A stretch of 22,955 nt of DNA. Source: a virus (taxonomy: Duplodnaviria; Heunggongvirae; Uroviricota; Caudoviricetes). Below the pieces are notes generated by a model. It did not search any database, was not told where the DNA came from, and worked only from the letters and a program-made list of their open reading frames with translations. Position numbers and translations under genes: made by a program. The stretch is from the IMG/VR virus record IMGVR_UViG_2541047790_000011, one strand, 5' to 3'. Shown piece by piece: positions 1-22,955 of the stretch (position 1 is its first letter; each line of letters opens with the position of its first letter).

Positions 1-1239
1 ATGAGCAGGGCAATTCATAGACTTAGCGACACTCTTTTACGAAAATTAAGCGGATCACCAACCACAAAAAGCACCTTTTTTAATGATGGTGGCAATCTTA
101 GCGTAAGGCATTCAATCAATGGCCTGTTAACCTGGTATTTCACTTACAGGGCCGGAACTGGTAGGCAGATATCACCGGAACGTCTGAGGCTGGGCAATTA
201 TCCCGATCTGAGCCTGAAAGCTGCCAGGGAAAAAGCGGCACAGTGTCGCGCCTGGCTGGCTGAGGGGAAAAATCCGCGCTATGAACTTAATCATGCTGTA
301 CAGGACGCGTTAGCCCCCGTGACGGTTAAGGAAGCGCTCACTTACTGGCTTGAATCGTACGCAAAGGAAAAGCGCACTGACTACGAATCACTGAAAAGCC
401 GGATCAATAAACACATAATTAGCCAGATTGGCGCTATGCCACTGGAAAAATGCGAGCTACGCCACTGGCTGGCCTGTTTTGACCAGCTTGCTAAGCGTAA
501 TCCGGTATCAGCCGGATTTTTGCTACAGGTATGCAAACAGGCGCTTAAGTACTGCCGAAAACGACGATACGCAATCAGCAACGTTCTTGATGATATGGTC
601 GTAGGTGATGTGGGGAAAAAAGCAGAAATAAGTGAGCGTGTACTGACAAACAAAGAGCTTGGAGAACTACTCCGCGCACTGGATGAAAAAATCTTCCCGC
701 CGTACTACAGCGCCCTAATTCGCCTCCTGATTGTTTTTGGATGCCGTACCACTGAGCTAAGGCGCTCTGAGGTGCAGGAGTGGGATTTTAAGGAAATGCT
801 CTGGACAGTACCGAAGGAGCACAGCAAAACGAAGGTCGCCATATTCAGACCAATACCGGAAAGCATTCTGCCGTTCGTCACGCAGCTGGTGGAGAAGAAC
901 AGGCACACGGGCTTATTGCTTGGAGAACTGAAAGGGCAATCATCCGTAGCAGAGTACGGAAGAACAGCGCACAGACGAATTAATCAAGCCCCCTGGACGT
1001 TACACGATATCCGGCACACATTTACAACCATGCTGAACGATTTAGGCGTGGATCCGCATATTGTCGAGCAGCTTACAGCCCACCAGATGCCAGGGATGCA
1101 ACGCGTCTATAACCACTCCCGTTATCTTGATGCAAAACGTGATGCTCTTAATCTATGGGTAGACCGTCTCGAGCTTCTCCAGAACAATGATGAAAAAGTC
1201 GTTGTTATGACCCCACGAATTTACACCCAAAATTCTTGA
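1..1239 (+). CDS. int: Tyrosine recombinase / integrase, P4 family
   Basis: 412-aa ORF. The N-terminus 'LLTWYFTYRAG...RLRLGNYPDLSLKAAREKA' matches the arm-binding domain pattern of P4-type integrases. Catalytic-core motifs are present: 'FGCRTTEL' (Arg), 'HDIRHTF' (His-x-x-Arg) and 'YNHSRY' (Tyr region). The ORF begins at window base 1. Confidence 0.93.
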   Translation: MSRAIHRLSDTLLRKLSGSPTTKSTFFNDGGNLSVRHSINGLLTWYFTYRAGTGRQISPERLRLGNYPDLSLKAAREKAAQCRAWLAEGKNPRYELNHAVQDALAPVTVKEALTYWLESYAKEKRTDYESLKSRINKHIISQIGAMPLEKCELRHWLACFDQLAKRNPVSAGFLLQVCKQALKYCRKRRYAISNVLDDMVVGDVGKKAEISERVLTNKELGELLRALDEKIFPPYYSALIRLLIVFGCRTTELRRSEVQEWDFKEMLWTVPKEHSKTKVAIFRPIPESILPFVTQLVEKNRHTGLLLGELKGQSSVAEYGRTAHRRINQAPWTLHDIRHTFTTMLNDLGVDPHIVEQLTAHQMPGMQRVYNHSRYLDAKRDALNLWVDRLELLQNNDEKVVVMTPRIYTQNS

Positions 1240-1648
1240 CAAATTACGGCTGTTTTTTCTTTAAGAGATTACAGCCGTGAATAAAACGCTAAATATCGGT
1301 CAAGTTCGTTAATTTTTTATTTTTCAACCATCGAAAAAATTGAAATGCACCCTACTAAACCCTTATTAGCTATTTCTTGATTGTTCCAATACCTGATGGT
1401 TTATCTGTTTGTTTTTAATGAGATAATTCAAGCGTAATGCCAAATGACGACATTTTTTGTTGCGTCGCTTAAAAACTCGTGACACGATTTTAAACACTAA
1501 CGAGCTTCTACGAACCTTAGCGAACAAAGCCTTTAGCAAGGTTGTGTTTTTAATTTAAGAGGTGAAAAAGAATCTAAGTAATATCCGATCTCATATATCT
1601 ACAGCTAAGAGAAAAGTTTATATACGTAATTTTTATGTAGGTTTTTGT

Positions 1649-1858
1649 ATGCGTGAAATAAATGAAGATCGCGTAATCCGTGAGGATGAATGTCGTAAGT
1701 TAACTGGAGTGTGTCGCACTACACGCTACGAACTGGAGAAAAAAGGATGCTTTCCGTCACGTCTTAATCTGGGCGGTCGTTCTGTTGGTTGGCTGCTGTC
1801 CGAGGTTATGGAATGGGTTAAAAGCCGGGATCGCATTAATTCAGGTAAGGCAGCGTAA
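1649..1858 (+). CDS. alpA: AlpA-family helix-turn-helix regulator / excisionase-like protein
   Basis: 69 aa from ATG 1649; the ORF-track GTG at 1562 is an unlikely start. 'RVIREDECRKLTGVCRTTRYELEKKGCFPSRLNLGGRSVGWLLSEVMEWV' is the typical AlpA/MerR-like HTH pattern. It sits immediately after int, as in P4-like islands and PICIs. Confidence 0.85.
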   Translation: MREINEDRVIREDECRKLTGVCRTTRYELEKKGCFPSRLNLGGRSVGWLLSEVMEWVKSRDRINSGKAA

Positions 1859-2201: not shown

Positions 2202-2381
2202 TTACTCCTGCTCTTTGGCTTTGCGGCGCTGGCGGCGTTTGATCTCGCCTTTTGCGGCAGTAACTAAAAAACCAGCGGTACTTTCGCCAGGTTCTTTAAG
2301 TTGCTCAATATCATCCATTACTTCATGTGGGATTCTGACAGTTGTCATTTGTGATTTTGCGTTCTTTGCACCAGTTGCCAT
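2202..2381 (-). CDS. Ribbon-helix-helix (CopG/Arc-like) DNA-binding protein, candidate island repressor
   Basis: 59 aa from ATG 2381, preceded by TAGGAG with a 7-nt spacer. 'MTTVRIPHEVMDDIEQLKEPGESTAGFLVTAA' fits the beta-strand/helix/helix RHH pattern. The 115-aa ORF-track version is an upstream over-extension. Confidence 0.65.
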   Translation of the reverse strand: MATGAKNAKSQMTTVRIPHEVMDDIEQLKEPGESTAGFLVTAAKGEIKRRQRRKAKEQE

Positions 2382-5048: not shown

Positions 5049-5062
5049 TTTTTTGTAAAAGC

Positions 5063-5288
5063 CCTCTACCCCATCTACCTGAATGAAATAAACGCATATT
5101 ATTCAACATGATAAGTGGGTAGAGGGATAGGTAGAAGGCTAATAAAACCCCTCTACCTCCTCTACCATGATTAAGGTCGTTTGTGAGGGGCGGGTAGAGG
5201 ATGGGTAGAGGGCCACGAAAAGCCCTCTACCCATCTGAAAGCCGCGCCATTACTGACCTGAAAGATGATTAGGTAGAAGAGGTAGAGG
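5063..5288. repeat. Replication-origin iterons: 11 copies of an 8-mer GGTAGAGG/CCTCTACC (8 exact, 3 one-off variants) in both orientations, flanking an AT-rich stretch
   Basis: Exact copies at 5063, 5118, 5150, 5159, 5193, 5204, 5224 and 5281. Variants at 5072 (CATCTACC), 5130 and 5272 (GGTAGAAG). The AT-rich segment is about 5080-5115. The position just 3' of the initiator gene matches SaPI/PICI origins. Confidence 0.75.
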
Positions 5289-5335
5289 AGGTGCACCACA
5301 ACCTAAAACTTTTTAAACGAGGGGGGTAAAAATAA

Positions 5336-6346: not shown

Positions 6347-6373
6347 GGCCTGGTAAAATCCAGGCCATTTTTT
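6347..6373. terminator. Bidirectional intrinsic terminator between convergent genes
   Basis: Stem GGCCTGG (6347-6353) pairs with CCAGGCC (6360-6366), with loop TAAAAT. A T-run lies at 6368-6373 on the plus strand. The minus strand reads T-rich after the stem. Confidence 0.7.
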
Positions 6374-6878
6374 ACAGTAAGCCTATTAGGGCACTTGCGC
6401 CAGCCCCAACAATGCTGGCAACGGTACTGTTTTCCAGTAACTGCTTTAATACTGATTTGGCTTGTACATCCCCCGATTTAGCGACTTTTTCAACCAGTTC
6501 AGTGATGCTGATGTTTACCAGCATATGGTTATGCTCACCTATCTGCACTTGATCACCACTAATTGAACCAATGTTAAATGTATTACTTTTAGTTGGCGTC
6601 ATATGTTCATTTCCCGTGATATTTTCAATATAGAGAGTCAACATATTTGGATGATTGGTTCCCTGTCTGCGGGTTCCATTGGGAAGCAACTTCATATCTA
6701 TAATTTTTAGATTTATCTCGTTTTTACCGACACGCTGGATAATGTGTTGACCAATAGTTACTTCCGGTTCATTTGTATATGGAATTAATACCTTGTTTTC
6801 TTTTGCGTTTCTTTTACCTCTGAATGATTCGCCATTAATTATGAAAGTATCAGGGTATACCATTGCGCTTAAATTCAT
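6372..6878 (-). CDS. Hypothetical 168-aa protein with a C-terminal hydrophobic tail; opposite-strand, AT-rich cargo gene of the island
   Basis: Clean ORF with AAAGGA upstream of the ATG. It ends in 'STVASIVGAGASALIGLL', a predicted C-terminal membrane anchor. It is the only large minus-strand gene between the replication and head modules. It is visibly AT-richer than its neighbours (by eye, not computed). Confidence 0.75.
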   Translation of the reverse strand: MNLSAMVYPDTFIINGESFRGKRNAKENKVLIPYTNEPEVTIGQHIIQRVGKNEINLKIIDMKLLPNGTRRQGTNHPNMLTLYIENITGNEHMTPTKSNTFNIGSISGDQVQIGEHNHMLVNISITELVEKVAKSGDVQAKSVLKQLLENSTVASIVGAGASALIGLL

Positions 6879-6944
6879 GATGCGTCCTTTGTTGTAGTCA
6901 GAGACAGCAATAATAGGCCATGGTTTACTTCTTTTGTAAATTAT

Positions 6945-6971
6945 TTGTTCGTGTTCTTTCGTGGTTGTTCG
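6945..6971 (+). promoter_or_regulatory. Three 10-bp-phased direct repeats TTGTTCG / TCTTTCG / TTGTTCG upstream of the head operon
   Basis: Copies start at 6945, 6955 (2 mismatches) and 6965. The same 7-mer occurs three times in the same 10-bp phasing at 14177-14203. Confidence 0.4.
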
Positions 6972-7164
6972 GTCTGACTGACAGGTGTTTACATACTGAT
7001 TTTTATGTATATGTTGTAGCGTGGCACTCAGACGTGAGCCGCCACAATGCCGCCTGACCCCCTGCGCGATGCCGGGTTGATCTGCGAGATGCCGAGAGTG
7101 TCGGGCGGCGCTCCCCCCGTGTTGGTTTCACGTCCTGAATCTTAACCAATACGAGAAAACCTTC

Positions 7165-11545: not shown

Positions 11546-13190
11546 GTACGCAGAAGACGTAAAAACGGGCAAAATTCCGGCCTGTAAACGGCTGAAACAG
11601 GCCGTTAAACGGTACTTTTCGGACCTTGAAAGCCCCCTTTACACGTTCGATCGTGAGGTTGTGGAGCGGTTTATTGCCTTTTCCAGGGTGTGCGCGCACG
11701 TAAAAGGGCCGATGCGTGGCAGACCCATTGAGCTGGAGCCGTGGCAGCAGTTCGCCTTTGCGTGCATCCTCGGCTTTAAGGTTAAGGCCACCGGACGGCG
11801 CAAATACACGAGCGCCTTTATCGAAGTGCCGCGCAAAAATGCGAAATCCACGACCGCCGCGATTCTGGCTAACTGGTTTCTGATTATGGAGAACGGTCAG
11901 CAGGATATCTACACCGCAGCGGTGAGCCGTGACCAGGCGCGGATCGTCTTTGATGATGCGCGTCAGATGTGCCTTTTATCCCGACCGTTACGCAGGCGGG
12001 TGAATATTCAGGCGCATAAGGTGATACACCCGAAAACCAACAGCCTGTTAAAGCCACTGGCAGCAAAAGCGGCAACCATTGAGGGGACAAACCCGAGTCT
12101 TGCCATTGTGGATGAATATCACCTGCACCCAGACAACGGGGTTTATTCCGCACTTGATATGGGGATGGGCGCACGTCCCGAAGGGCTGTTATTTGCCATT
12201 ACCACATCGGGCAGTAACGTCGTTTCAGCCTGTAAGCAGCACTATGATTATTGCTGCCAGATCCTGGACGGCGAAGAGGTCAACGATTCAATTTTTGTAC
12301 TGATTTACGAACTGGACGACGAAAACGAGGTTGATGATCCGGCGATGTGGATAAAGGCTAACCCTAACATCGATGTTTCCGTCGATCGTGAAAAACTGGC
12401 CTCAACCATCCAGAAAGCGCGGGGTATTCCGTCGCAATGGGTGGAAATGCTCACCAAGCGATTCAATATCTGGTGTCAGGGGGCTACGCCGTGGATGGGT
12501 AACGGTGCATGGGCGGAGTGTGCCGGAACGTTCGCGGAGGCGGATTTATACGGGCAGGAGTGCTACGCGGGGCTGGACTTATCATCAACCAGCGATATTT
12601 CCAGCGTGTGCTATGCCTTCCCGGTCGGTAAAAAGATTATGCTGGTTTCCCGTCACTATCTGCCGGAATTTCAGCTACAGAATCCCGCCAATAAAAACCG
12701 CGCCATCTATCGCCAGTGGGTAAAGGCGGGCTGGATACGCACAACACCGGGTGACTGCATTGATTATGACCGTATCCGTGATGACATCATGGCGGATGCA
12801 GAGAATTTCAATATCAGGCTGGTGGGCTTCGATACATGGAACGCCACGCACCTGAGGACGCAGTTACAGGGCGCAGGATTTGAGGTGGAGCCGTTCCCGC
12901 AAACCTACCTCAGATTCAGTCCGGCGGCGAAATCGTTCGAAGTTTTTGTTAACCGGAAGGTGATTGTGCATCGTGGTGATCCGGTGCTGGCCTGGTCAAT
13001 GAGTAATGTTGTGATGCAGAGTGACGCGAACGCCAATATCAAGCCGAACAAGAAAAAATCATCCAACAAGATAGACCCGAGCGTTGCGGCGCTGATGGCG
13101 TTTGGCACATTCCAGGCAGAGCACGAGGACTTTGCATTCGATATGAGCGACAGCCACAAAGAGCGGCTTGCGGCGTTTGATGGGGTATGA
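11529..13190 (+). CDS. terL: Terminase large subunit
   Basis: 553 aa. ATPase motifs 'VPRKNAKSTTAA' (Walker A-like) and 'LAIVDEYH' (Walker B) are present, followed by a C-terminal nuclease-domain-sized region. Confidence 0.93.
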   Translation: MTAWNKYAEDVKTGKIPACKRLKQAVKRYFSDLESPLYTFDREVVERFIAFSRVCAHVKGPMRGRPIELEPWQQFAFACILGFKVKATGRRKYTSAFIEVPRKNAKSTTAAILANWFLIMENGQQDIYTAAVSRDQARIVFDDARQMCLLSRPLRRRVNIQAHKVIHPKTNSLLKPLAAKAATIEGTNPSLAIVDEYHLHPDNGVYSALDMGMGARPEGLLFAITTSGSNVVSACKQHYDYCCQILDGEEVNDSIFVLIYELDDENEVDDPAMWIKANPNIDVSVDREKLASTIQKARGIPSQWVEMLTKRFNIWCQGATPWMGNGAWAECAGTFAEADLYGQECYAGLDLSSTSDISSVCYAFPVGKKIMLVSRHYLPEFQLQNPANKNRAIYRQWVKAGWIRTTPGDCIDYDRIRDDIMADAENFNIRLVGFDTWNATHLRTQLQGAGFEVEPFPQTYLRFSPAAKSFEVFVNRKVIVHRGDPVLAWSMSNVVMQSDANANIKPNKKKSSNKIDPSVAALMAFGTFQAEHEDFAFDMSDSHKERLAAFDGV

Positions 13191-13628: not shown

Positions 13629-14176
13629 AAAAAGACGGTTTAACCATCCATTAAAAATCGACGTGATTTTGTGCTTTCCGTATGAGGTGGCCAGCGTCAT
13701 TTTTTAGTGAGAAATTCTGGTCAGGGGCGTTGGCTGAATGGTTATTTTATCGTGCCCATGCACAGGGAGGGGGCGGGTAAAATCTCTGGAGGTGATGCCT
13801 GTCAGGACCGCCGCCTGACCCTTCCTCACATCGCCGCAGGTTCGAAAACTTTTTTTGTGTCAGGTGCGCACGGAATTGATAGATAAAACCTATATTAAAA
13901 AATCACGGAAGCCGTGCCATTGCTGGAGCAGTCAAAAATTCCACATCTCACGGCAGGCAAAAAAAGCGAATTTTGGGCCAGTTGAGGATAAAAAAGGGCT
14001 CACTAGTTTTGCACATCCTGGTATCGGGGTCGTCAGCCTCCCGCCAGTAACTAGGTAACTAATCACGCTGGTGGGCATGATGCCGATGCCGGGATCTCGG
14101 TATCGGTTTATCTGTGATCATCCACCAGCTTGATGACAGATAACAGGGAGTCATAACGGTTAAAGCGTGTTGATCT

Positions 14177-14233
14177 TTGTTCGTGGTTGTTCGATATTGT
14201 TCGTAAAGCGGTGTAGTTAATGGTGTAGTTAAT
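14177..14233 (+). repeat. Three exact TTGTTCG repeats at 10-bp phasing, followed by a tandem 12-mer GGTGTAGTTAAT x2
   Basis: TTGTTCG at 14177, 14187 and 14197. GGTGTAGTTAAT at 14210-14221 and 14222-14233. Confidence 0.4.
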
Positions 14234-14406
14234 TTCGCTGTTTTTGACGAGCTTATCATTTGCAACGCAATGAAAAACAAAGACTAATTAACAAAATGCT
14301 ATAAATGATAGTTATCTATCATGTGGAGTAGATTGGTCAGGCAAATAAGCTCTTGTCAGCGGCAGGGCGTTCTGCCGATAACCGTAACCGAAGATGATAA
14401 CTGACA

Positions 14407-17377: not shown

Positions 17378-17465
17378 TGGCGGTGAGGGGGGGATTCGAA
17401 CCCCCGATACGTTGCCGTATACACACTTTCCAGGCGTGCTCCTTCAGCCACTCGGACACCTCACC
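17378..17465 (-). tRNA. serW: tRNA-Ser (anticodon GGA)
   Basis: The reverse complement reads GGTGAGGTGTCCGAGTGGCTGAAGGAGCACGCCTGGAAAGTG...GGGGGTTCGAATCCCCCCCTCACCGCCA. It is 88 nt with a long variable arm, the anticodon loop CTGGAAA and an encoded CCA end. Confidence 0.95.
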
Positions 17466-17508
17466 AAATTGTTTTTTTGCCTGACCTCATGGGGGGCAAC
17501 GGGGCGCT

Positions 17509-17537
17509 ACTATAGGGAGTTGGAATAAAACGGTCAA
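17509..17537 (-). promoter_or_regulatory. serW sigma70 promoter with a GC-rich discriminator
   Basis: On the minus strand: -35 TTGACC (17532-17537), a 17-bp spacer, -10 TATAGT (17509-17514), then the GC-rich AGCGCCCCG typical of stringently controlled tRNA promoters. Confidence 0.6.
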
Positions 17538-17830
17538 GAAGAATTTTTATGATAATTATTGTTTGCTCATACTGTAAACAAGTTGTGCAGTATATCTACA
17601 TCTGATGCGCCGCGCGATAAATAAGCCGCAATCCGTGAGATAAATGGACACAGTGCGGCTTTTCAGATACGGAAAAGGAATTACAGATTATCAGTCGTAA
17701 GCAACCCACGCTTACTGGCAAGGATGGTTTACAATGCTGAAAGCGCCTCCCGGCAATACCGCCAATCATCACTCAAACAGAAAAAATTATTGCTCATGGT
17801 TCACTCCGGTAATGAATCGTTTTACAGGCG

Positions 17831-18424
17831 TCATTCGGTCATGGAAAGATTGCTGATTTCGGTAATCCCGGCAATTTCCTCGCTGACGGATTTCAGTTCG
17901 ATTTCCAGCTTGGTGCGTTCGTTGACCAGCGCAGCTACGGTCTTACGGCGGTCTGCCAGTGACGGAAGGTTGTCATTGCCCCACGCCACGCTTTTATCCT
18001 TTTTGAGCGCTTCGGTCAGGCGGGTGGCGACCACATCCGGGAAGAAAAAGCATAACTTACGCATAACCGTCATCCCGACATCAGCCAGGGGGACATTCCC
18101 GCTCAGTCCCACCAGACGGAACAGACCAGAAATATCACCATTCTCATTTTCCAGATTACCCCAGCGTTCGGCGTTCCCTTCACTGCCGGAACCGTTGCAA
18201 AGAGCAAGCTTGAATGACTGATATTCTTCCTGCCCGAATCGCTCAATATATTCAGGAATAAAGGAACAGTAATCATTAAGCGATAATGGCATATCCTGTA
18301 ATGTGGTTATTTCACTGTTAATCTCTCCAATTCGGCGGGAGAGCTTTTCTTTCTGCTCATTCAGGGAGGCAAGATTATTTTTAACGGCGTTCAGTGCTTC
18401 GATAAGGGAAATAACAGGTTTCAT
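17831..18424 (-). CDS. Hypothetical coiled-coil protein (197 aa), possibly scaffold-like
   Basis: ATG 18424 is preceded by GGAG and lies 2 nt after the upstream gene's stop. Heptad-like N- and C-terminal segments are present ('LNAVKNNLASLNEQKEKLSRRIGEINSEITTLQ', 'RRKTVAALVNERTKLEIELKSVSEEIAG'). The ORF-track start at 18493 is an over-extension. Confidence 0.7.
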   Translation of the reverse strand: MKPVISLIEALNAVKNNLASLNEQKEKLSRRIGEINSEITTLQDMPLSLNDYCSFIPEYIERFGQEEYQSFKLALCNGSGSEGNAERWGNLENENGDISGLFRLVGLSGNVPLADVGMTVMRKLCFFFPDVVATRLTEALKKDKSVAWGNDNLPSLADRRKTVAALVNERTKLEIELKSVSEEIAGITEISNLSMTE

Positions 18425-18425
18425 T

Positions 18426-19040
18426 TTAATAACTCCAGATGAAAGGCGTGGTGAGGGCGAGCGCTTCAGAATAGGAGACATTGCAGGCTGCACTTACGTC
18501 CTTTATTAAAAGGTGCTGTGCTGCCCTCTGACTGTCTGCTATGCCGTCAAACTCTGAAAAATGAACGTGTGATTCATTGTGATAAAAGCAAACCGGGTAA
18601 CAGCTTTCCATAAATTCTACCTGCGCCAGTCCCTTTACTGCTGGAGGCTGTGAGCCGAGAAAACCGATATGCTGAAGATACCAGGCACCGATTCCTGCCG
18701 GGTTGTTCGCTTCGCCGGGTCTATAAAATGCCGCAGACACTTTCCTGTAACGCCCTGCGCGTACCAGTCCCAGCAGGGTTTCATCAGGCTTAACCAGCGC
18801 GAAAAGCCTGCCGTTTTTACTTATCAGCCCAGTTGTTTCACCATAAGATGGGCTGTTGCTGGCCGGATGTCCAATACACAGCGGCGCACCATAACCCGCA
18901 CGATGATAGCCGTTATAGGCTGCCGCCATGTTGTCGATATCCTCGTCGGAAAAGGCAATTTCCTGCCCAGCCATCGTGATATGCGTTCCCGCCCGGAATA
19001 TCTCGATAGTTTTCCAGTTGCCAATATCGATATCTTTCAT
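18426..19040 (-). CDS. Phage head maturation protease / scaffold N-domain-like protein (P2 gpO / Mu I-like pattern); function tentative
   Basis: 204 aa. The pattern 'W..IEIFRAGTH....G..I.F...DID.MAAAYN......APL.IGHP....P.YG....L...G.LFA.V.P.....LV..G.YRKVSAAFY.P......G.WYL.HIGFLG..PPAVKGL' resembles phage prohead protease/scaffold families, with candidate His in GHP and Ser in KVSA. This is recalled from memory, not searched. Confidence 0.55.
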   Translation of the reverse strand: MKDIDIGNWKTIEIFRAGTHITMAGQEIAFSDEDIDNMAAAYNGYHRAGYGAPLCIGHPASNSPSYGETTGLISKNGRLFALVKPDETLLGLVRAGRYRKVSAAFYRPGEANNPAGIGAWYLQHIGFLGSQPPAVKGLAQVEFMESCYPVCFYHNESHVHFSEFDGIADSQRAAQHLLIKDVSAACNVSYSEALALTTPFIWSY

Positions 19041-19041
19041 T

Positions 19042-19569
19042 TTAAATTACCCCATATTTCGCATCGCGCTGTATTTTATTTTTCTTGCGTTCGGCGGCTA
19101 TAATCTGATAAATACACTGAATGGAACGCTTGTATTTTTTTGATAGTTCAAAAATAGAGATACCCTGATAAAAATCAGCCAGTATTTTTGAGTTCCTGTC
19201 GAAAGTGTTTTTTGATGCGCCCATAGGGATATATATATTCCCCCTGAAAAATGTATTCCTGAGACATTCAGTGATGGCAGGAGAAAGTTTTTCGGCTTGC
19301 GAACAGAGGTAAGGTATGGTTCCTAATGTCTGCTCAATAGATTCAGTCAGCTCCTGTAGGAAGCGAACTGCCTTAGGTGCTCTTTCTCGGTGTTCAGCCA
19401 TATACCCCTGGCAGCCACCAAGGTTATCAGAGATACCCAACACAATATGATTAGCCGCACTGCAGGACTGTTGCCGTGAATACCCTTTGTTGATCAGAAA
19501 CACTTCTATAGCATCGCCCATTGCCCCCAAAGTATCGGATGAAGCATACAATCCTTCTCTTGTAATCAT
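19042..19569 (-). CDS. Mor/C-family transcriptional activator-like protein
   Basis: 175 aa from ATG 19569, with GAGGT 6 nt upstream. 'IVLGISDNLGGCQGYM' and 'GNIYIPMG' resemble Mu Mor 'VVAICKHLGGGQVYIPRG'. The C-terminal HTH 'ILADFYQGISIFELSKKYKRSIQCIYQIIAAERK' resembles Mor 'IWNDFNGRNVSELTTRYGVTFNTVYKAIRR'. Confidence 0.7.
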   Translation of the reverse strand: MITREGLYASSDTLGAMGDAIEVFLINKGYSRQQSCSAANHIVLGISDNLGGCQGYMAEHRERAPKAVRFLQELTESIEQTLGTIPYLCSQAEKLSPAITECLRNTFFRGNIYIPMGASKNTFDRNSKILADFYQGISIFELSKKYKRSIQCIYQIIAAERKKNKIQRDAKYGVI

Positions 19570-19601
19570 AATCACACCTCGTCAACGATAAATATGCGCA
19601 C

Positions 19602-19624
19602 ATAAAGCCTTTATAAAGCTTTAT
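19602..19624. promoter_or_regulatory. Overlapping dyad and direct repeats (ATAAAGC x2, palindrome CTTTATAAAG) upstream of the Mor-like operon
   Basis: ATAAAGC at 19602 and 19613. The 10-bp palindrome is at 19609-19618. The inverted copy GCTTTAT is at 19618-19624. Confidence 0.3.
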
Positions 19625-19770
19625 GAGGTGCATTACTGGTGTCATTCCATGATGCACACCACCAACAACCAAAAACGCCTTACAGAGCATTTCAATGTGT
19701 GTTATTAATGTGGATTAAGAATATGGTTTTGGGGCGAGAATGTTTTTTAATGTACTTTAGATATGACGAA

Positions 19771-19788
19771 GCCCCTCAAAGGAGGGGC
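19771..19788 (-). terminator. GC-rich hairpin just downstream of the 92-aa gene
   Basis: Stem GCCCCTC/GAGGGGC, loop AAAG. The U-tract on the minus strand is weak, so termination efficiency is uncertain. Confidence 0.4.
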
Positions 19789-19809
19789 GAGGCGGAAAAC
19801 TATTTATAA

Positions 19810-20088
19810 CTATTCCTTACTCTCCTGATCAAGACGATTACCTATCAGGTTAATCATTGCCATTGCATCAGATAGCAGGATACTGTTAACAAGTGCTAAG
19901 GGCGTCTGTGTTGATTTATCATCAACGGCAACAGAAAGTTCATCATTCAGGCGACGAACGGCCTCAAGACGGCTAAAGGCGGCTTCCCATATTTCTGTAC
20001 TCGGGGCATCAGCATTAACAAACAAAACATCGTAAGACGTTCCCTGAGACTCATGAGGACAGGCTATGAAATTAGCAGTAGCTTTCAT
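19810..20088 (-). CDS. Hypothetical protein (92 aa)
   Basis: The ORF's start overlaps the stop of the upstream gene (ATGA at 20085-20088). No family confidently recognised. Confidence 0.65.
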   Translation of the reverse strand: MKATANFIACPHESQGTSYDVLFVNADAPSTEIWEAAFSRLEAVRRLNDELSVAVDDKSTQTPLALVNSILLSDAMAMINLIGNRLDQESKE

Positions 20089-20564
20089 TTTGCAGTCCTC
20101 CGGTTAATTATAAATTTATTATAAATTTCATAACTTGCGGCATTCAGTCCTGGACTGTATTTATCTGCCAGTGAACAGGCAATGAATTCTTCAATCGATT
20201 TAGTCAGTATATCAAGCTCAGTTGTTCCGGAATAACGCAAGGCCACTCGAAATAATTCTCGGCAGTATGTTTTTTTATGGTCAATATTTTGTAACTGCTG
20301 TTGCGGTATATCACGACGTTCAAATATATTAACAAATGCATTAAGCGGGAAGCTATGATTTGCCTGCGGATATTGCTCATAGGAAAACACCACAGTATTA
20401 CCGTTGCATTCTTTAACAATTGCATTCATACCGCTGTTAATTTCAATATACCACTCTCCTATACATGGAGGATTGATAGCTTCGCTCTGTGCCTTGATTA
20501 AAGGTAAGCGGATAGTATCCACTTGGTTTGTTGCAACTGAATCGTTAGACTTGTCGTTAGCCAT
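20085..20564 (-). CDS. Hypothetical protein (159 aa)
   Basis: ATG 20564 is preceded by AGGA at an 8-nt spacing. The ORF-track start at 20582 lacks an SD. No family recognised. Confidence 0.65.
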   Translation of the reverse strand: MANDKSNDSVATNQVDTIRLPLIKAQSEAINPPCIGEWYIEINSGMNAIVKECNGNTVVFSYEQYPQANHSFPLNAFVNIFERRDIPQQQLQNIDHKKTYCRELFRVALRYSGTTELDILTKSIEEFIACSLADKYSPGLNAASYEIYNKFIINRRTAK

Positions 20565-20660
20565 GACTGTTATCCTACACATAACGGTTTTTGGTTAGGC
20601 CATAGCAAGTGCTCGCAACATTTGTTATGGCCGTTTCTTTGGCCCTTTCCCTGTGATAAG

Positions 20661-20701
20661 GTATAGACCTAACAAGTAAACACTAAGCCATAGGTCTATA
20701 C
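20661..20701. promoter_or_regulatory. 11-bp perfect inverted repeat GTATAGACCTA ... TAGGTCTATAC (19-bp spacer) in the divergent promoter region
   Basis: Arms at 20661-20671 and 20691-20701; the right arm abuts ATG 20702. A second 7-bp inverted repeat, GGCCATA/TATGGCC, is at 20598-20604 / 20626-20632. Confidence 0.45.
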
Positions 20702-20893
20702 ATGTCAACTATCTTGAGAGATAAAAGCCAAAAAGGGGCAGGGAAAGCCCCCATGTTTAACGTTAGAATATCGCCAGATTTGAAAGAACAGTTTGAAATA
20801 CAAGCAAAAAAAGAAGGTGTTAGCTTGGGAAACTGGCTCAAGGAACTTGGCAGGGCGGAACTAAAACGTAAGGGGATCGAGCCGAAAGGGTGA
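20702..20893 (+). CDS. Arc/CopG-like ribbon-helix-helix DNA-binding protein (63 aa; more likely 46 aa from ATG 20753)
   Basis: 'MFNVRISPDLKEQFEIQAKKEGVSLGNWLKELGRAEL' matches the Arc/Mnt/CopG beta-alpha-alpha pattern (compare Arc 'MPQFNLRWPREVLDLVRKVAEENGRSVNSEIYQRV'). AGGGA lies 8 nt before ATG 20753. No SD precedes 20702. Confidence 0.7.
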   Translation: MSTILRDKSQKGAGKAPMFNVRISPDLKEQFEIQAKKEGVSLGNWLKELGRAELKRKGIEPKG

Positions 20894-20919
20894 TGTTTTA
20901 GTCTCCCTGTGTTTGATTA

Positions 20920-21757
20920 AAAGCGAAATCGCTTTCACATTTAAAGTTCAAGATAGCCAATGCCATCACCAAAGCGGACAGCGCTGTCCGCTTTTCATCA
21001 GTAAAAACCACATATTTACGCCAAAACGCTCAACGTTGAGCGCTACGTACCCCGGCAAAAGCGCAAGCGTCTGCGCTTTTGGTAACAAGCAATCAGCATT
21101 TAAATGCGGACAACGTTGACCGTTTTGAGGAATCAATGTCGGCTGAGCAAAAACGACAACGTTGTCGTTTTTAAAACGGCAAGCGCTTACCGTTTCAGAT
21201 TATCGAGGCGGTAAGAGTTTACCGTTTGGTGTCAATTATGTTCAATAAGCGAAAACGTTTTCGCATTTTCTCACCTAACGCGGCAAACCTTCTTTGTCCT
21301 AGATGGAAAAACGACAGCGCTGTCGTTTCTAATCCGGGGTTCCAAACCGCTCAGCGCTGAGCGGTTCTGTGGCTTTCTTACAATCCAAATCCGCCAACGT
21401 TGGCAGATTTGCAAATATCACATATGATTGATGGTCCCGAATCACAAATGTCCCAGCGCGGGGATATTTCAAGTAGTTCAATCATTTCATGCGCTGGCAG
21501 TCATCTCCAAAACTGCGAACGCCTGCCCTTTCAGTACAGTTTGGTAATATATATTGGTAAGCTTTACTTGTAGAAATATAAAACTCCAAAAGCGCCAGCG
21601 CTGGCGCTTTGTAAGGCCAGCAATATCATTCCCAGCGCTGGAATACTAAAAGGCGGATTCCTGCATCTTAATTTGAGATGGAATCTCATGGCAATCCAGT
21701 GTTAACGTAGGGTTTTAGCCAGTACTCACGACTTGAATATGCCAGCGCTGGCACATT
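20920..21757. repeat. ORF-free array of at least 16 sequence-variable palindromes with conserved centres AGCGCT or AACGTT and A-tract/T-tract flanks; class unknown
   Basis: Read directly. Perfect palindromes: 20971-20994 (24 bp), 21027-21042 (16), 21149-21172 (24), 21249-21264 (16), 21309-21328 (20), 21345-21366 (22), 21589-21610 (22), 21740-21753 (14). Near-perfect units: 20920, 21056, 21103, 21174, 21209, 21386, 21446, 21632. Confidence 0.85.
21554..21582 (+). promoter_or_regulatory. Candidate sigma70 promoter inside the palindrome array
   Basis: TTGGTA (21554-21559), a 17-bp spacer, TATAAA (21577-21582), in the only strongly AT-rich stretch of the array. It would start transcription at about the 21589 palindrome. 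Confidence 0.3.
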
Positions 21758-21975
21758 TGAAGTCTGGTAACATCAATAATCTAATGACACCTGATGTAAT
21801 TTTGAACCCTGAACTGGAATCAACCCCAAATTTAATGGCAACAGCTATCAGCCAGATTACTGATGAACGTGACCTGCTGAACCAATTACTTGACCAAGCA
21901 CAGATGGCCGATGCATTCGAGCAATTTTCCCGAACGGTTCGGACTTCTAAACTGGCTTTTGTGAAGGAAAACAAG
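21739..21975 (+). pseudogene. 5' fragment (about 79 codons) of an unknown gene, truncated by IS insertion
   Basis: The ORF from ATG 21739 (or TTG 21733) runs straight into the IS terminal inverted repeat at 21976. Its last residues and its stop are IS-derived. Confidence 0.5.
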
Positions 21976-22955
21976 GGCTTTGTTGAATAAATCAGATTTC
22001 GGGTAAGTCTCCCCCGTAGCGGGTTGTGTTTTCAGGCAATACGCACGCTTTCAGGCATACCTGCTTTCGTCATTTTGTTCAGCGCTCGTACCAGGGCCAT
22101 AGCCTCTGCAACCTGACCATCGTAGTCACGCAGTGTCAGTGAACCTCCGAACAGCTGTTTTACCCGGTACATCGCCGTTTCCGCTATCGAGCGACGGTTA
22201 TAATCTGTTGTCCATTTCCACCGCGCATTACTCCCGGTCAGCCGCTGATTCGCAACAGCACGGTTACGGTCTGCATATTCACCGGGCCAGTAACCCGCGC
22301 CTTTTCGGGGCGGGATAAGCGCGCTGATTTTCTTACGCCGCAGTTCATCGTGACAGAGCCGGGTGTCGTAAGCGCCGTCTGCCGATGCTGCCCTGATTTT
22401 TCTGTGAGTCTGCCGGATAAGACCCGGGAAGGCTTCTGAGTCCGTCACATTGTTCAGCGACAGGTCTGCACAGATGATTTCATGTGTTTTGCTGTCAACT
22501 GCCAGATGCAACTTTCGCCATATACGACGGCGTTCTTTGCCGTGTTTTTTGACTTTCCATTCGCCTTCACCAAAGACCTTCAGCCCGGTGGAATCAATCA
22601 CCAGATGCGCGATTTCACCTCGGGTGAACGTTTTGAAACTGACATTAACCGACTTTGCGCGCTTGCTGACACTGGTGTAATCCGGGCAGCGCAACGGAAC
22701 ATTCATCAGTGTAAAAATGGAATCAATAAAACCCTGTGCAGCCCGCAGGGTCAACCTGAACACGCGTTTAATGACCAGAACGGTGGTGATGGCGAGATCA
22801 GAATAGCGCTGAGGTCTTCCCCGTGATGAAGGCGTTGCCGACTCATACCAGGCCTGAATAGCTTCATCATCCAGCCAGAAAGTTATGGAGCCACGGTTGA
22901 TGAGGGCTTTATTGTAGGTGGGCCAGTTGGTGATTTTGAACTTTTGCTTTGCCAC
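21976..22955 (-). mobile_element. IS903/IS102-family insertion sequence (IS5 family), partial; it runs off the window end
   Basis: The terminal inverted repeat GGCTTTGTTGAATAAATC is at 21976-21993. The internal sequence and transposase are recognisably IS903-like. The far inverted repeat, about 80 bp beyond the window, is not visible. Confidence 0.92.
22032..22955 (-). CDS. IS903/IS102 transposase (DDE, 307 aa, GTG start at the window edge)
   Basis: The translation 'MAKQKFKITNWPTYNKALINRGSITFWLDDEAIQAWYESATPSSRGRPQRYSDLAITTVL...' is near-identical, from memory, to the IS903 transposase. Confidence 0.95.
   Translation of the reverse strand: MAKQKFKITNWPTYNKALINRGSITFWLDDEAIQAWYESATPSSRGRPQRYSDLAITTVLVIKRVFRLTLRAAQGFIDSIFTLMNVPLRCPDYTSVSKRAKSVNVSFKTFTRGEIAHLVIDSTGLKVFGEGEWKVKKHGKERRRIWRKLHLAVDSKTHEIICADLSLNNVTDSEAFPGLIRQTHRKIRAASADGAYDTRLCHDELRRKKISALIPPRKGAGYWPGEYADRNRAVANQRLTGSNARWKWTTDYNRRSIAETAMYRVKQLFGGSLTLRDYDGQVAEAMALVRALNKMTKAGMPESVRIA

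Follow-up and report, generated by a model that had tools for sequence, protein, structure and literature searches.

The capsid genes of a phage satellite in Escherichia coli are preceded by a short repeat that recurs, with the same spacing of one helical turn, at the end of the satellite, which raises the question of whether one protein acts at both places and which protein that would be. The stretch of DNA examined (IMG/VR record IMGVR_UViG_2541047790_000011; 22955 nt, referred to here as the window) is 100% identical to the chromosomes of several E. coli strains, including an O25:H4 isolate, and holds a capsid-forming phage-inducible chromosomal island (cf-PICI) between yljB/cspD and clpS. 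An earlier note on the window had recorded the heptamer TTGTTCG in 10-bp-phased clusters, and had proposed that these are bound by a single small island protein, with AlpA as the candidate, that would couple excision to expression of the head genes. All of the heptamers quoted there were found, and the 10-bp-phased repeats with a GTTCG core are probably AlpA operator arrays that serve excision, autoregulation and activation of the capsid operon, where we infer both the binding by AlpA and the sign of the regulation from sequence. This reading is favoured because of the non-chance occurrence of the arrays, the layout of the attachment (att) arms, the precedent of KplE1 (CPS-53), the likeness of AlpA to P4 Vis, published data on the PICI EcCICFT073 and the footprint seen in the capsid box of relatives.

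Phased heptamer arrays occur at four places

Three clusters are present in the window, all of them intergenic. The capsid-operon control array (6945–6971, plus strand) is composed of TTGTTCG, TCTTTCG and TTGTTCG, starting at 6945, 6955 and 6965, and the right-arm (attR) array (14177–14203, plus strand) of three exact TTGTTCG copies, starting at 14177, 14187 and 14197. Six more phased copies in the same orientation lie in the left arm, 24–163 bp before window position 1, and the 170 bp ahead of that position are found at NZ_CP082775.1 1652430–1652605. The array upstream of alpA (1501–1527, minus strand) is inverted, with CGAGCTT, CGAACCT and CGAACAA at 1501, 1511 and 1521 on the plus strand, and reads TTGTTCG-cta-AGGTTCG-tag-AAGCTCG on the minus strand (cores GTTCG, GTTCG and GCTCG). 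In each of the four clusters the repeats follow one another at exactly 10 bp and at least three direct repeats run head to tail, as is expected for operators of recombination directionality factors. Such factors bind cooperatively, head to tail, to tandem repeats with a period of one helical turn, and their specificity is relaxed (PMC7498355). Relaxed specificity of this kind suits the degenerate middle site, TCTTTCG, of the capsid array. Among 15 heptamers (with a weak TTGTAAA at 6934 left out), positions 3–7 (GTTCG) are nearly invariant.

The bare heptamer is not significant alone, as 8 copies of TTGTTCG were found against 3.9 expected and 8 was reached in 4 of 100 shuffles. The copies at 13045 (minus strand) and 18703 (plus strand) are singletons, and the earlier view was that a few copies are expected by chance, with that at 18703 probably one of them. 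GTTCG-N5-GTTCG gave 3 matches in the window against 0.07 expected, all within the clusters already recorded and one of them in the array upstream of alpA, TTCG-N6-TTCG-N6-TTCG gave 2 matches against 0.00 expected, and arrays of at least three sites occur at 0.007 per shuffled island. The phased arrays at the four places are thus not the product of chance, which bears out what had been said of the triplets. The cluster upstream of alpA, which had been described as weaker, is stronger than was thought, since it holds one of the GTTCG-N5-GTTCG matches and has counterparts in EcCICFT073 and other relatives.

The island ends form a 73-nt imperfect direct repeat, as found in a repeat search of L001 (the window locus with 1.5 kb of flank), and part of the similarity between the arms therefore reflects shared descent, leaving the option that the arrays are a chance feature or a non-functional duplication of an arm segment. 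However, the shuffle expectations are 0.00–0.07, and the spacers diverge while the phased cores are conserved across genera, making this explanation extremely unlikely.

Heptamer arrays and 12-mer doublets in the attachment arms

The integration boundaries were mapped against the empty site of MG1655 (K-12), in which yljB runs to clpS over a single ATGATAGTTATCTATCA core. The island is bounded by the core ATGATAGTTAT(C/T)TATCA, with the attR core ATGATAGTTATCTATCA, the crossover region, at 14304–14321 and the attL core copy outside the window, 168–185 bp before position 1 (L001:1316–1333). The inter-core length is ~14.5 kb, and about 14–15 kb is expected for the cf-PICI class. The sequence at 14177–14203 is absent from the empty site, so that it is not core cspD-clpS DNA, the alternative that the earlier note had set out; it is island DNA, with the attR core some 100 bp away.

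The left arm is directly 5' of int (1–1239, plus strand), the ATG of which is the start of the window and which encodes a P4-type tyrosine integrase with an Arm-DNA-bind_3 N-terminal domain (Pfam). In the left arm, the core is followed by GTGTTCG-cgg-GTGTTCG, ~56 bp, TTGTTCG-ccc-TTGTTCG-tcg-CTGTTTG-ccc-TTGTACG and a doublet of 12-mers (GGTGTAGTCAAT GGTGTAGTTAAT; 24–47 bp before window position 1), which is separated from the int ATG by 24 bp. In the right arm, the three TTGTTCG copies are followed by two tandem copies of GGTGTAGTTAAT (14210–14233, plus strand; found by repeat search), ~70 bp and the core. Both arms present a class A element (10-bp-phased heptamers) and then a class B element (two contiguous 12-mers), in a shared order and orientation, and the arrays are 5–130 bp from the core in the left arm and about 100–127 bp from it in the right arm, within the ~150 bp expected of att-arm sites and beside the putative integrase sites. 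The right-end sites proposed earlier do therefore lie in an att arm, but such sites are not restricted to the right end.

The array-then-doublet layout was also found on both arms of the related islands L084, L085, L086, L088, L089, L090 and L093, and the right arms of L084, L086, L088, L089 and L093 show the right-arm layout of the window island. An identical 12-mer, GGTGTAGTTAAT, was found only where the N-terminal 100 amino acids of Int are 80% identical (L086 and L088); EcCICFT073 carries the same 12-mer, and the N-terminal sequence of its Int is closely similar by eye. Islands with 40–56% identity in this part of Int carry other doublets (GTGCAGTCAGTG, GGTGTATCAATC, TGTATAAACA and TGTGTATTGCA), and all of these retain a TGTTC/GTTC-type array just upstream of the doublet. 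The heptamer did not covary with the arm-binding N-terminal domain of the integrase, its GTTC core being constant across Int clades at this level of identity.

These comparisons bear on whether the N-terminal domain of the integrase binds the heptamers themselves as arm-type sites, as could be supposed from their presence on both arms, where arm-type sites are also found, and from the Arm-DNA-bind_3 domain of Int. However, a separate 12-mer doublet sits where P4 has its annotated arm repeats and KplE1 its P' sites, and varies with the Int N-terminal domain, whereas the GTTC core is constant, and the occurrence of the heptamer upstream of alpA and at the capsid promoter would be surprising for an arm-type site. 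Integrase binding to the heptamers is thus very improbable, and it is likely, from these patterns, that the 12-mer doublet and not the heptamer is the integrase arm site. Class B is assigned to the integrase, and class A to an excisionase-type protein, because class B tracks Int and because of the annotated layout in P4 and the mapped sites in KplE1.

The P4 record annotates 'attP arm sequence repeats' that consist of two contiguous 12-mers per arm, one pair of them ~15 bp before the int ATG, and three 10-bp-phased copies of xTCCG are located just upstream of the arm 12-mers. P4 therefore resembles the window island in having a 12-mer doublet on each arm with phased copies ahead of it, in addition to the relationship between Vis and AlpA given below, but differs in the motif (TCCG rather than TTCG) and in having no capsid operon of its own; the Vis sites are putative, as they were read from the sequence alone.

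In the prophage KplE1, five sites for the excisionase TorI, in two blocks, have been mapped in attL, and those in the second-block trio are 2 nt apart with cores GTTCG, GATCG and GTCCG (Panis et al. 2010, PMC2951348). Sites I3–I5, which are 10-bp phased and in the sequence have the cores GTTCG, GTTCG and GATCG, abut the -35 element of PintS, and the IntS arm-type sites come next (PMC2951348). In the MG1655 sequence, acaGTTCGtcatgGTTCGcttcaGATCGTTGACA is followed by GGGTAAAAAGTGGATAAAAT (12-bp spacing) and then by the intS ATG, and the first block adjoins the core; IntS and the island Int have identical Pfam architecture. KplE1 thus shares with the window island the GTTCG core, the 10-bp phasing, the two-block arrangement, and the order of array, arm sites ~12 bp apart and int ATG. 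It differs in that TorI sites are reported on attL only (PMC2951348), whereas the window island has arrays on both arms, in that no promoter target outside att is reported in that work, and in that TorI represses PintS whereas AlpA is expected to activate.

A 'doubled motif' described in helper-embedded PICIs, with co-oriented copies at ~81 and 132 bp on the two sides of the attP centre, was called unique to such PICIs by Tommasini et al. (2023, PMC10111431), who did not decide whether the integrase arm domain or AlpA binds it. This motif has its counterpart in the 12-mer doublets of the window island, at about 90 and 141 bp from the centre of the core, and not in the heptamer array. It seems that the 'doubled motif' is more general than helper-embedded PICIs.

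Phased GTGTTCAC or GTATTCAC arrays (3–5 copies, 10-bp spacing) were observed ~130 bp upstream of the capsid box in L070, L073 and L078 (Pasteurellaceae). These sit at the apparent left island end, which suggests that similar arm arrays occur in very distant cf-PICIs.

AlpA and the array upstream of its gene

The proposed binder, AlpA, is a 69-amino-acid helix-turn-helix regulator of the Phage_AlpA family (1649–1858, plus strand), which matched Pfam PF05930 with an E value of 9e-16 and 57.9 bits, against a cut-off of 21. It is 43% identical to P4 Vis (E 4e-19), and PDB entry 8c3t ('AlpA family') was matched by profile at 8.5e-13. The PF05930 match and the identity to P4 Vis point to a small, putatively cognate directionality factor encoded near int, and Vis is both the excisionase of P4 and a regulator of the P4 late promoters and Pint. 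A winged-helix fold would be expected for AlpA from its relatives. A single-sequence AlphaFold model reached a pLDDT of 65, too weak to add support, and a Foldseek search of the PDB with this model returned no match past E 0.001 (best E > 0.4), with MerR-type winged helices first and TorI at rank 8.

The inverted array at 1501–1527 lies 120–150 bp before the alpA ATG, and its repeats are putative autoregulatory AlpA sites. Upstream of alpA, EcCICFT073 has a counterpart with 5 copies and L086 one with 3 copies, and L004, L010, L019 and L084 each have a pair. A phased GTTC[GC] pair on the minus strand of the int-alpA interval is present in 7 of the 10 islands with an alpha- or beta-type AlpA, compared with 2.6% of random 700-nt intervals. 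In EcCICFT073, this interval carries five phased repeats on the minus strand (TTGTTCC, TTGTTCC, TTGTTCG, TTGTGTC and TTGTTTC), in the same place and orientation as 1501–1527, and both arms carry TTGTTCC/TTGTTTC arrays followed by GGTGTAGTTAAT doublets. The AlpA of L086 is almost identical to that of EcCICFT073, and L086 has arrays on both arms, in the int-alpA interval (inverted) and at the capsid promoter. No consensus promoter was found upstream of alpA in the window; this fits dependence on an activator but proves nothing.

EcCICFT073 and EcCIEDL933, in which AlpA is known as the master activator of Gram-negative PICIs, have the AlpA family and the island plan in common with the window island, and the AlpA of EcCICFT073 activates its own promoter, its overexpression leading to excision and replication (PMC6092414). 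EcCICFT073 differs in having no array before the capsid gene. In the prototype cf-PICI, mutation of alpA abolishes induction and transfer (bioRxiv 10.1101/2022.09.08.507074).

The arrays could instead, in part or in whole, dock an excisionase from a helper phage or another element, and this protein would turn on the island much as P2 Cox turns on P4 at the PLL promoter, where three phased 10-bp repeats containing TTAAAG (the Cox box) are present. Cross-talk between PICI and helper excisionases has been demonstrated (PMC11773190), and the helper-encoded inducer of alpA was left unidentified in the study of EcCICFT073 (PMC6092414). However, the motif is found on the island's own att arms beside its own putative integrase sites, which points to its own directionality factor, and AlpA alone suffices for excision and replication of EcCICFT073 (PMC6092414), so that binding by a foreign excisionase in place of AlpA is highly unlikely. 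By analogy, the arrays upstream of alpA and of the capsid gene might also be landing pads for AlpA together with the excisionases of helper phages or resident elements, and a slim chance is given to this idea. If it were true, the excision protein of the helper would be the long-sought inducer of Gram-negative PICIs, and cross-reacting excisionases would explain the induction of cf-PICIs by different phages, and capsids without a dedicated helper.

A further candidate is another small island protein, acting as a repressor or co-factor, such as the divergent YlcI/YnfO-family protein (2202–2381, minus strand), the gene for which is present in L001, L083–L089 and EcCICFT073, and absent from L090, which has another type of capsid box. 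The L090 contrast involves a single island, though, the protein has no Pfam match, and KplE1 and P4 share the arm layout but have no such gene as annotated. Ribbon-helix-helix proteins usually bind contiguous or inverted repeats and not 10-bp head-to-tail arrays, which also counts against this protein, and it is a doubtful candidate with little likelihood of being the binder. AlpA, the binder named originally, is now backed by the arm position of the arrays, the motif precedent in KplE1, the likeness to P4 Vis and the arrays upstream of alpA in relatives, and remains the predicted binder.

In L004, L010, L019 and L084, the GTTCG pair proximal to alpA was found within a hairpin with compensatory stems (CTCTCG/CGAGAG, CCCTCG/CGAGGG and TCCTCG/CGAGGA). 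In these alpha-type islands, a T run follows the hairpin directly before the alpA start, and the hairpin looks like a terminator-like element that overlaps the operator. The AlpA of Pseudomonas aeruginosa, a Q-like antiterminator of >140 amino acids whose one binding element, GGGACG, is located between -35 and -10 (PMC9371919), was considered as an analogue and rejected, as only the name is shared and no Vis/AlpA-type fold is described for it (PMC9371919).

The capsid-operon control region

Relatives of the capsid gene (59–76% identical) were found in 80 loci, and the control region upstream of them consists of an invariant TTTGTAAAT box, three phased repeats, a promoter and a conserved leader. 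In the window, the TTTGTAAAT box (6932–6940, plus strand) is directly 5' of the array and includes a possible weak fourth site, TTGTAAA (6934–6940), centred at about -85. A sigma-70-like capsid/packaging promoter (TTTACA, 16 nt, TATGTT; 6988–7015, plus strand) has -35 and -10 counterparts in class-1 relatives, and the last repeat of the array ends 17 bp upstream of its -35 element. Relative to the inferred transcription start (~7022), the three sites are centred at ~-74, -64 and -54, on one face of the helix.

In 12 non-redundant class-1 boxes, from Enterobacterales and Pasteurellaceae, the repeat cores carry 1.32 bits of information compared with 0.35 bits for the 3-nt spacers, and minima recur every 10 columns. 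This 10-bp periodicity is, as judged from the alignment, the footprint of selection. One motif is thus present both at att and at promoters elsewhere (those of the capsid operon and alpA), and both of these positions are conserved in relatives. GTTC-rich capsid boxes mostly accompany AlpA recognition helices of the alpha or beta type.

By analogy with P2 Cox at P4 PLL, the position of the array fits upstream activation. Cox reportedly activates PLL via phased upstream boxes, a finding said to go back to Saha et al. in 1989. P2 Cox and 186 Apl, which are dual-purpose directionality factors, resemble the proposed system in that they bind cooperatively and with loose specificity to direct repeats with the period of the helix, and do so in att regions as well as in promoters (PMC7498355). 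They belong to another protein family, though, mostly repress (except for Cox at PLL) and have operators between face-to-face promoters.

The weakest step of the argument as drawn from these sequences is that from AlpA to the capsid promoter, because of a negative matching test, the class-2 boxes, the paralogs of L083 and L087 and the invariance of the TTTGTAAAT box. These and several other observations weigh against the assignment of all four arrays to AlpA. In an island-specific test of box-arm matching (best 18-nt ungapped match, 21 islands), cognate pairs scored 12.5 and non-cognate pairs 12.0 of 18 and, given these values, covariation of box and arm judged by eye is not claimed. The gamma-type islands L090, L016 and L008 resemble L085 in their arm arrays, yet the repeat in their capsid box is of the GTTTACCC type and is followed by a hairpin. 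L083 and L087 have the capsid box of the window island, yet carry different AlpA paralogs and poorly phased arm sites. The cf-PICIs of E. coli, Xenorhabdus and Pasteurellaceae alike keep the TTTGTAAAT box unchanged, across AlpA types, and to judge from this distribution it cannot be attributed to any variable AlpA type.

Away from the capsid promoter, homology between TorI and AlpA is not demonstrable by sequence (25% identity; hhalign probability 7%), and the GTTCG core common to the TorI sites and the island could for this reason be a coincidence. An excisionase usually has its sites on a single arm, unlike the heptamer arrays found here on both. In published work, the AlpA of EcCICFT073 left the activity of the int promoter unchanged (PMC6092414), and the AlpA of a Vibrio PICMI altered no satellite transcription (PMC10803314).

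Much of this could be accommodated if the arrays had a split identity, with those in the arms and upstream of alpA being AlpA sites and that at the capsid gene being bound by a factor of the packaging module or the host, the likeness of capsid and arm arrays then reflecting common ancestry or a generic preference for T/G-rich sequence. The capsid box, including TCTTTCG and TTTGTAAAT, is kept with the packaging module even in Pasteurellaceae with very distant int and alpA, class-2 boxes do not match their own arm arrays, and the cognate versus non-cognate test was negative. Against this, the heptamer is identical in the capsid box and arms of the window island, which also have the 14-mer TTCGTGGTTGTTCG in common, and the box and arm variants of L084, L085 and L086 match by eye. 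In addition, no other conserved DNA-binding gene accompanies the box, and the divergent 168-amino-acid open reading frame (6372–6878) was rejected as the binder because L083, L086 and L088 have the box but lack this reading frame. Separate proteins at the arms and at the capsid promoter are thus considered unlikely, and AlpA is retained as the predicted binder of all four arrays. The earlier reading is supported in each part that was put to a test, including the capsid array, which is conserved with a 10-bp periodicity; the idea that one protein couples excision to the head genes is its least secure part, as the box-arm matching test and the differing boxes of some relatives speak against it.

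Three partial hits only were found when a phage origin of the control region was considered, and at least two of the records (16.5 kb and 3.8 kb) look like satellite DNA or fragments deposited as phage; a phage origin was therefore rejected. The leader (7021–7140) is conserved, with a 5' hairpin, GTGGCACTCAGACGTGAGCCGCCAC, and a distal GGTTTCACGTC, and has a fold z-score of -2.45; a search of Rfam with the control region and leader found nothing relevant, and the leader belongs to no Rfam family. Three linked leader positions co-change (T/A/A in 25 loci and G/C/C in 3 loci), which suggests alternative pairings. A 12-mer, GCCGCCTGACCC, occurs in the capsid leader at 7049–7060 and again at 13810–13821, in a 700-bp non-coding stretch before the right arm (0.00 expected).

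Proposed role of AlpA

In the mechanism envisaged, AlpA would behave like a recombination directionality factor and also regulate transcription, its monomers binding head to tail, one per helical turn, cooperatively, and bending the DNA. The arm arrays beside the 12-mer doublets would help to assemble the excisive complex, and those in the left arm may also overlap the int promoter region. The inverted array upstream of alpA would provide positive autoregulation, and the sites near -54, -64, -74 and perhaps -85 would activate the capsid/packaging promoter, such that one helper-induced protein could trigger excision and capsid production together.

This class of mechanism is well known from Cox, Apl, Vis, TorI and RdfS. 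Within the literature searched, no cis-acting site has been defined for the AlpA of a Gram-negative PICI, and the definition of sites for PICI/cf-PICI AlpA and the presence of such sites at a capsid promoter appear to be new. Published work on Gram-negative PICIs disagrees on AlpA, described for EcCICFT073 as a transcription activator, for Vibrio PICMI as purely an excisionase, and for EcCIMP1 as one or the other according to the paralog. A defined operator (GTTCG core, 10-bp phased) at both arms, alpA and the capsid promoter makes the role of AlpA experimentally tractable, and predicts that one protein does both jobs in cf-PICIs. Separating excisionase-type sites from integrase arm sites in P4-type att regions also helps in the annotation and engineering of satellites.

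Other features of the island and the window

By the RefSeq annotation of the identical locus, the gene plan of the island is that of a cf-PICI, with an int-alpA-primase module, its own capsid, protease, portal, connector, HNH, TerS and TerL genes and a defined att site, while genes for tails and lysis are absent. Downstream of alpA are the reverse-oriented YlcI/YnfO-family gene, Icd-like genes, a DUF4222 gene, genes for a primase and SSB, and the divergent 168-amino-acid open reading frame. The head/packaging module follows the order HK97-type capsid, protease, portal, connector, HNH, TerS and TerL, with clpS and clpA beyond it.

A region after the primase gene (5056–5292) carries dense iterons, CCTCTACC/GGTAGAGG, in at least 12 copies, direct and inverted, and is probably the replication origin of the island; CTGTCTACC-type iterons are found at the equivalent position in EcCICFT073. 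TTGTTCG does not occur in this region and, as the repeat set there is distinct, a role for the heptamers as origin iterons was rejected.

The islands L083 and L087 (E. coli 2014C-3075 and ETEC4090) are located inside the terminase large-subunit gene of a prophage, have a capsid control region that is 93% identical, and carry genes for two AlpA paralogs, with one gene overlapping the end of int. Another part of the window (17378–22955) holds a second, unrelated island after tRNA-Ser(GGA), with genes for a Mor-family activator, a HicB antitoxin, hypothetical proteins and an IS5 transposase.

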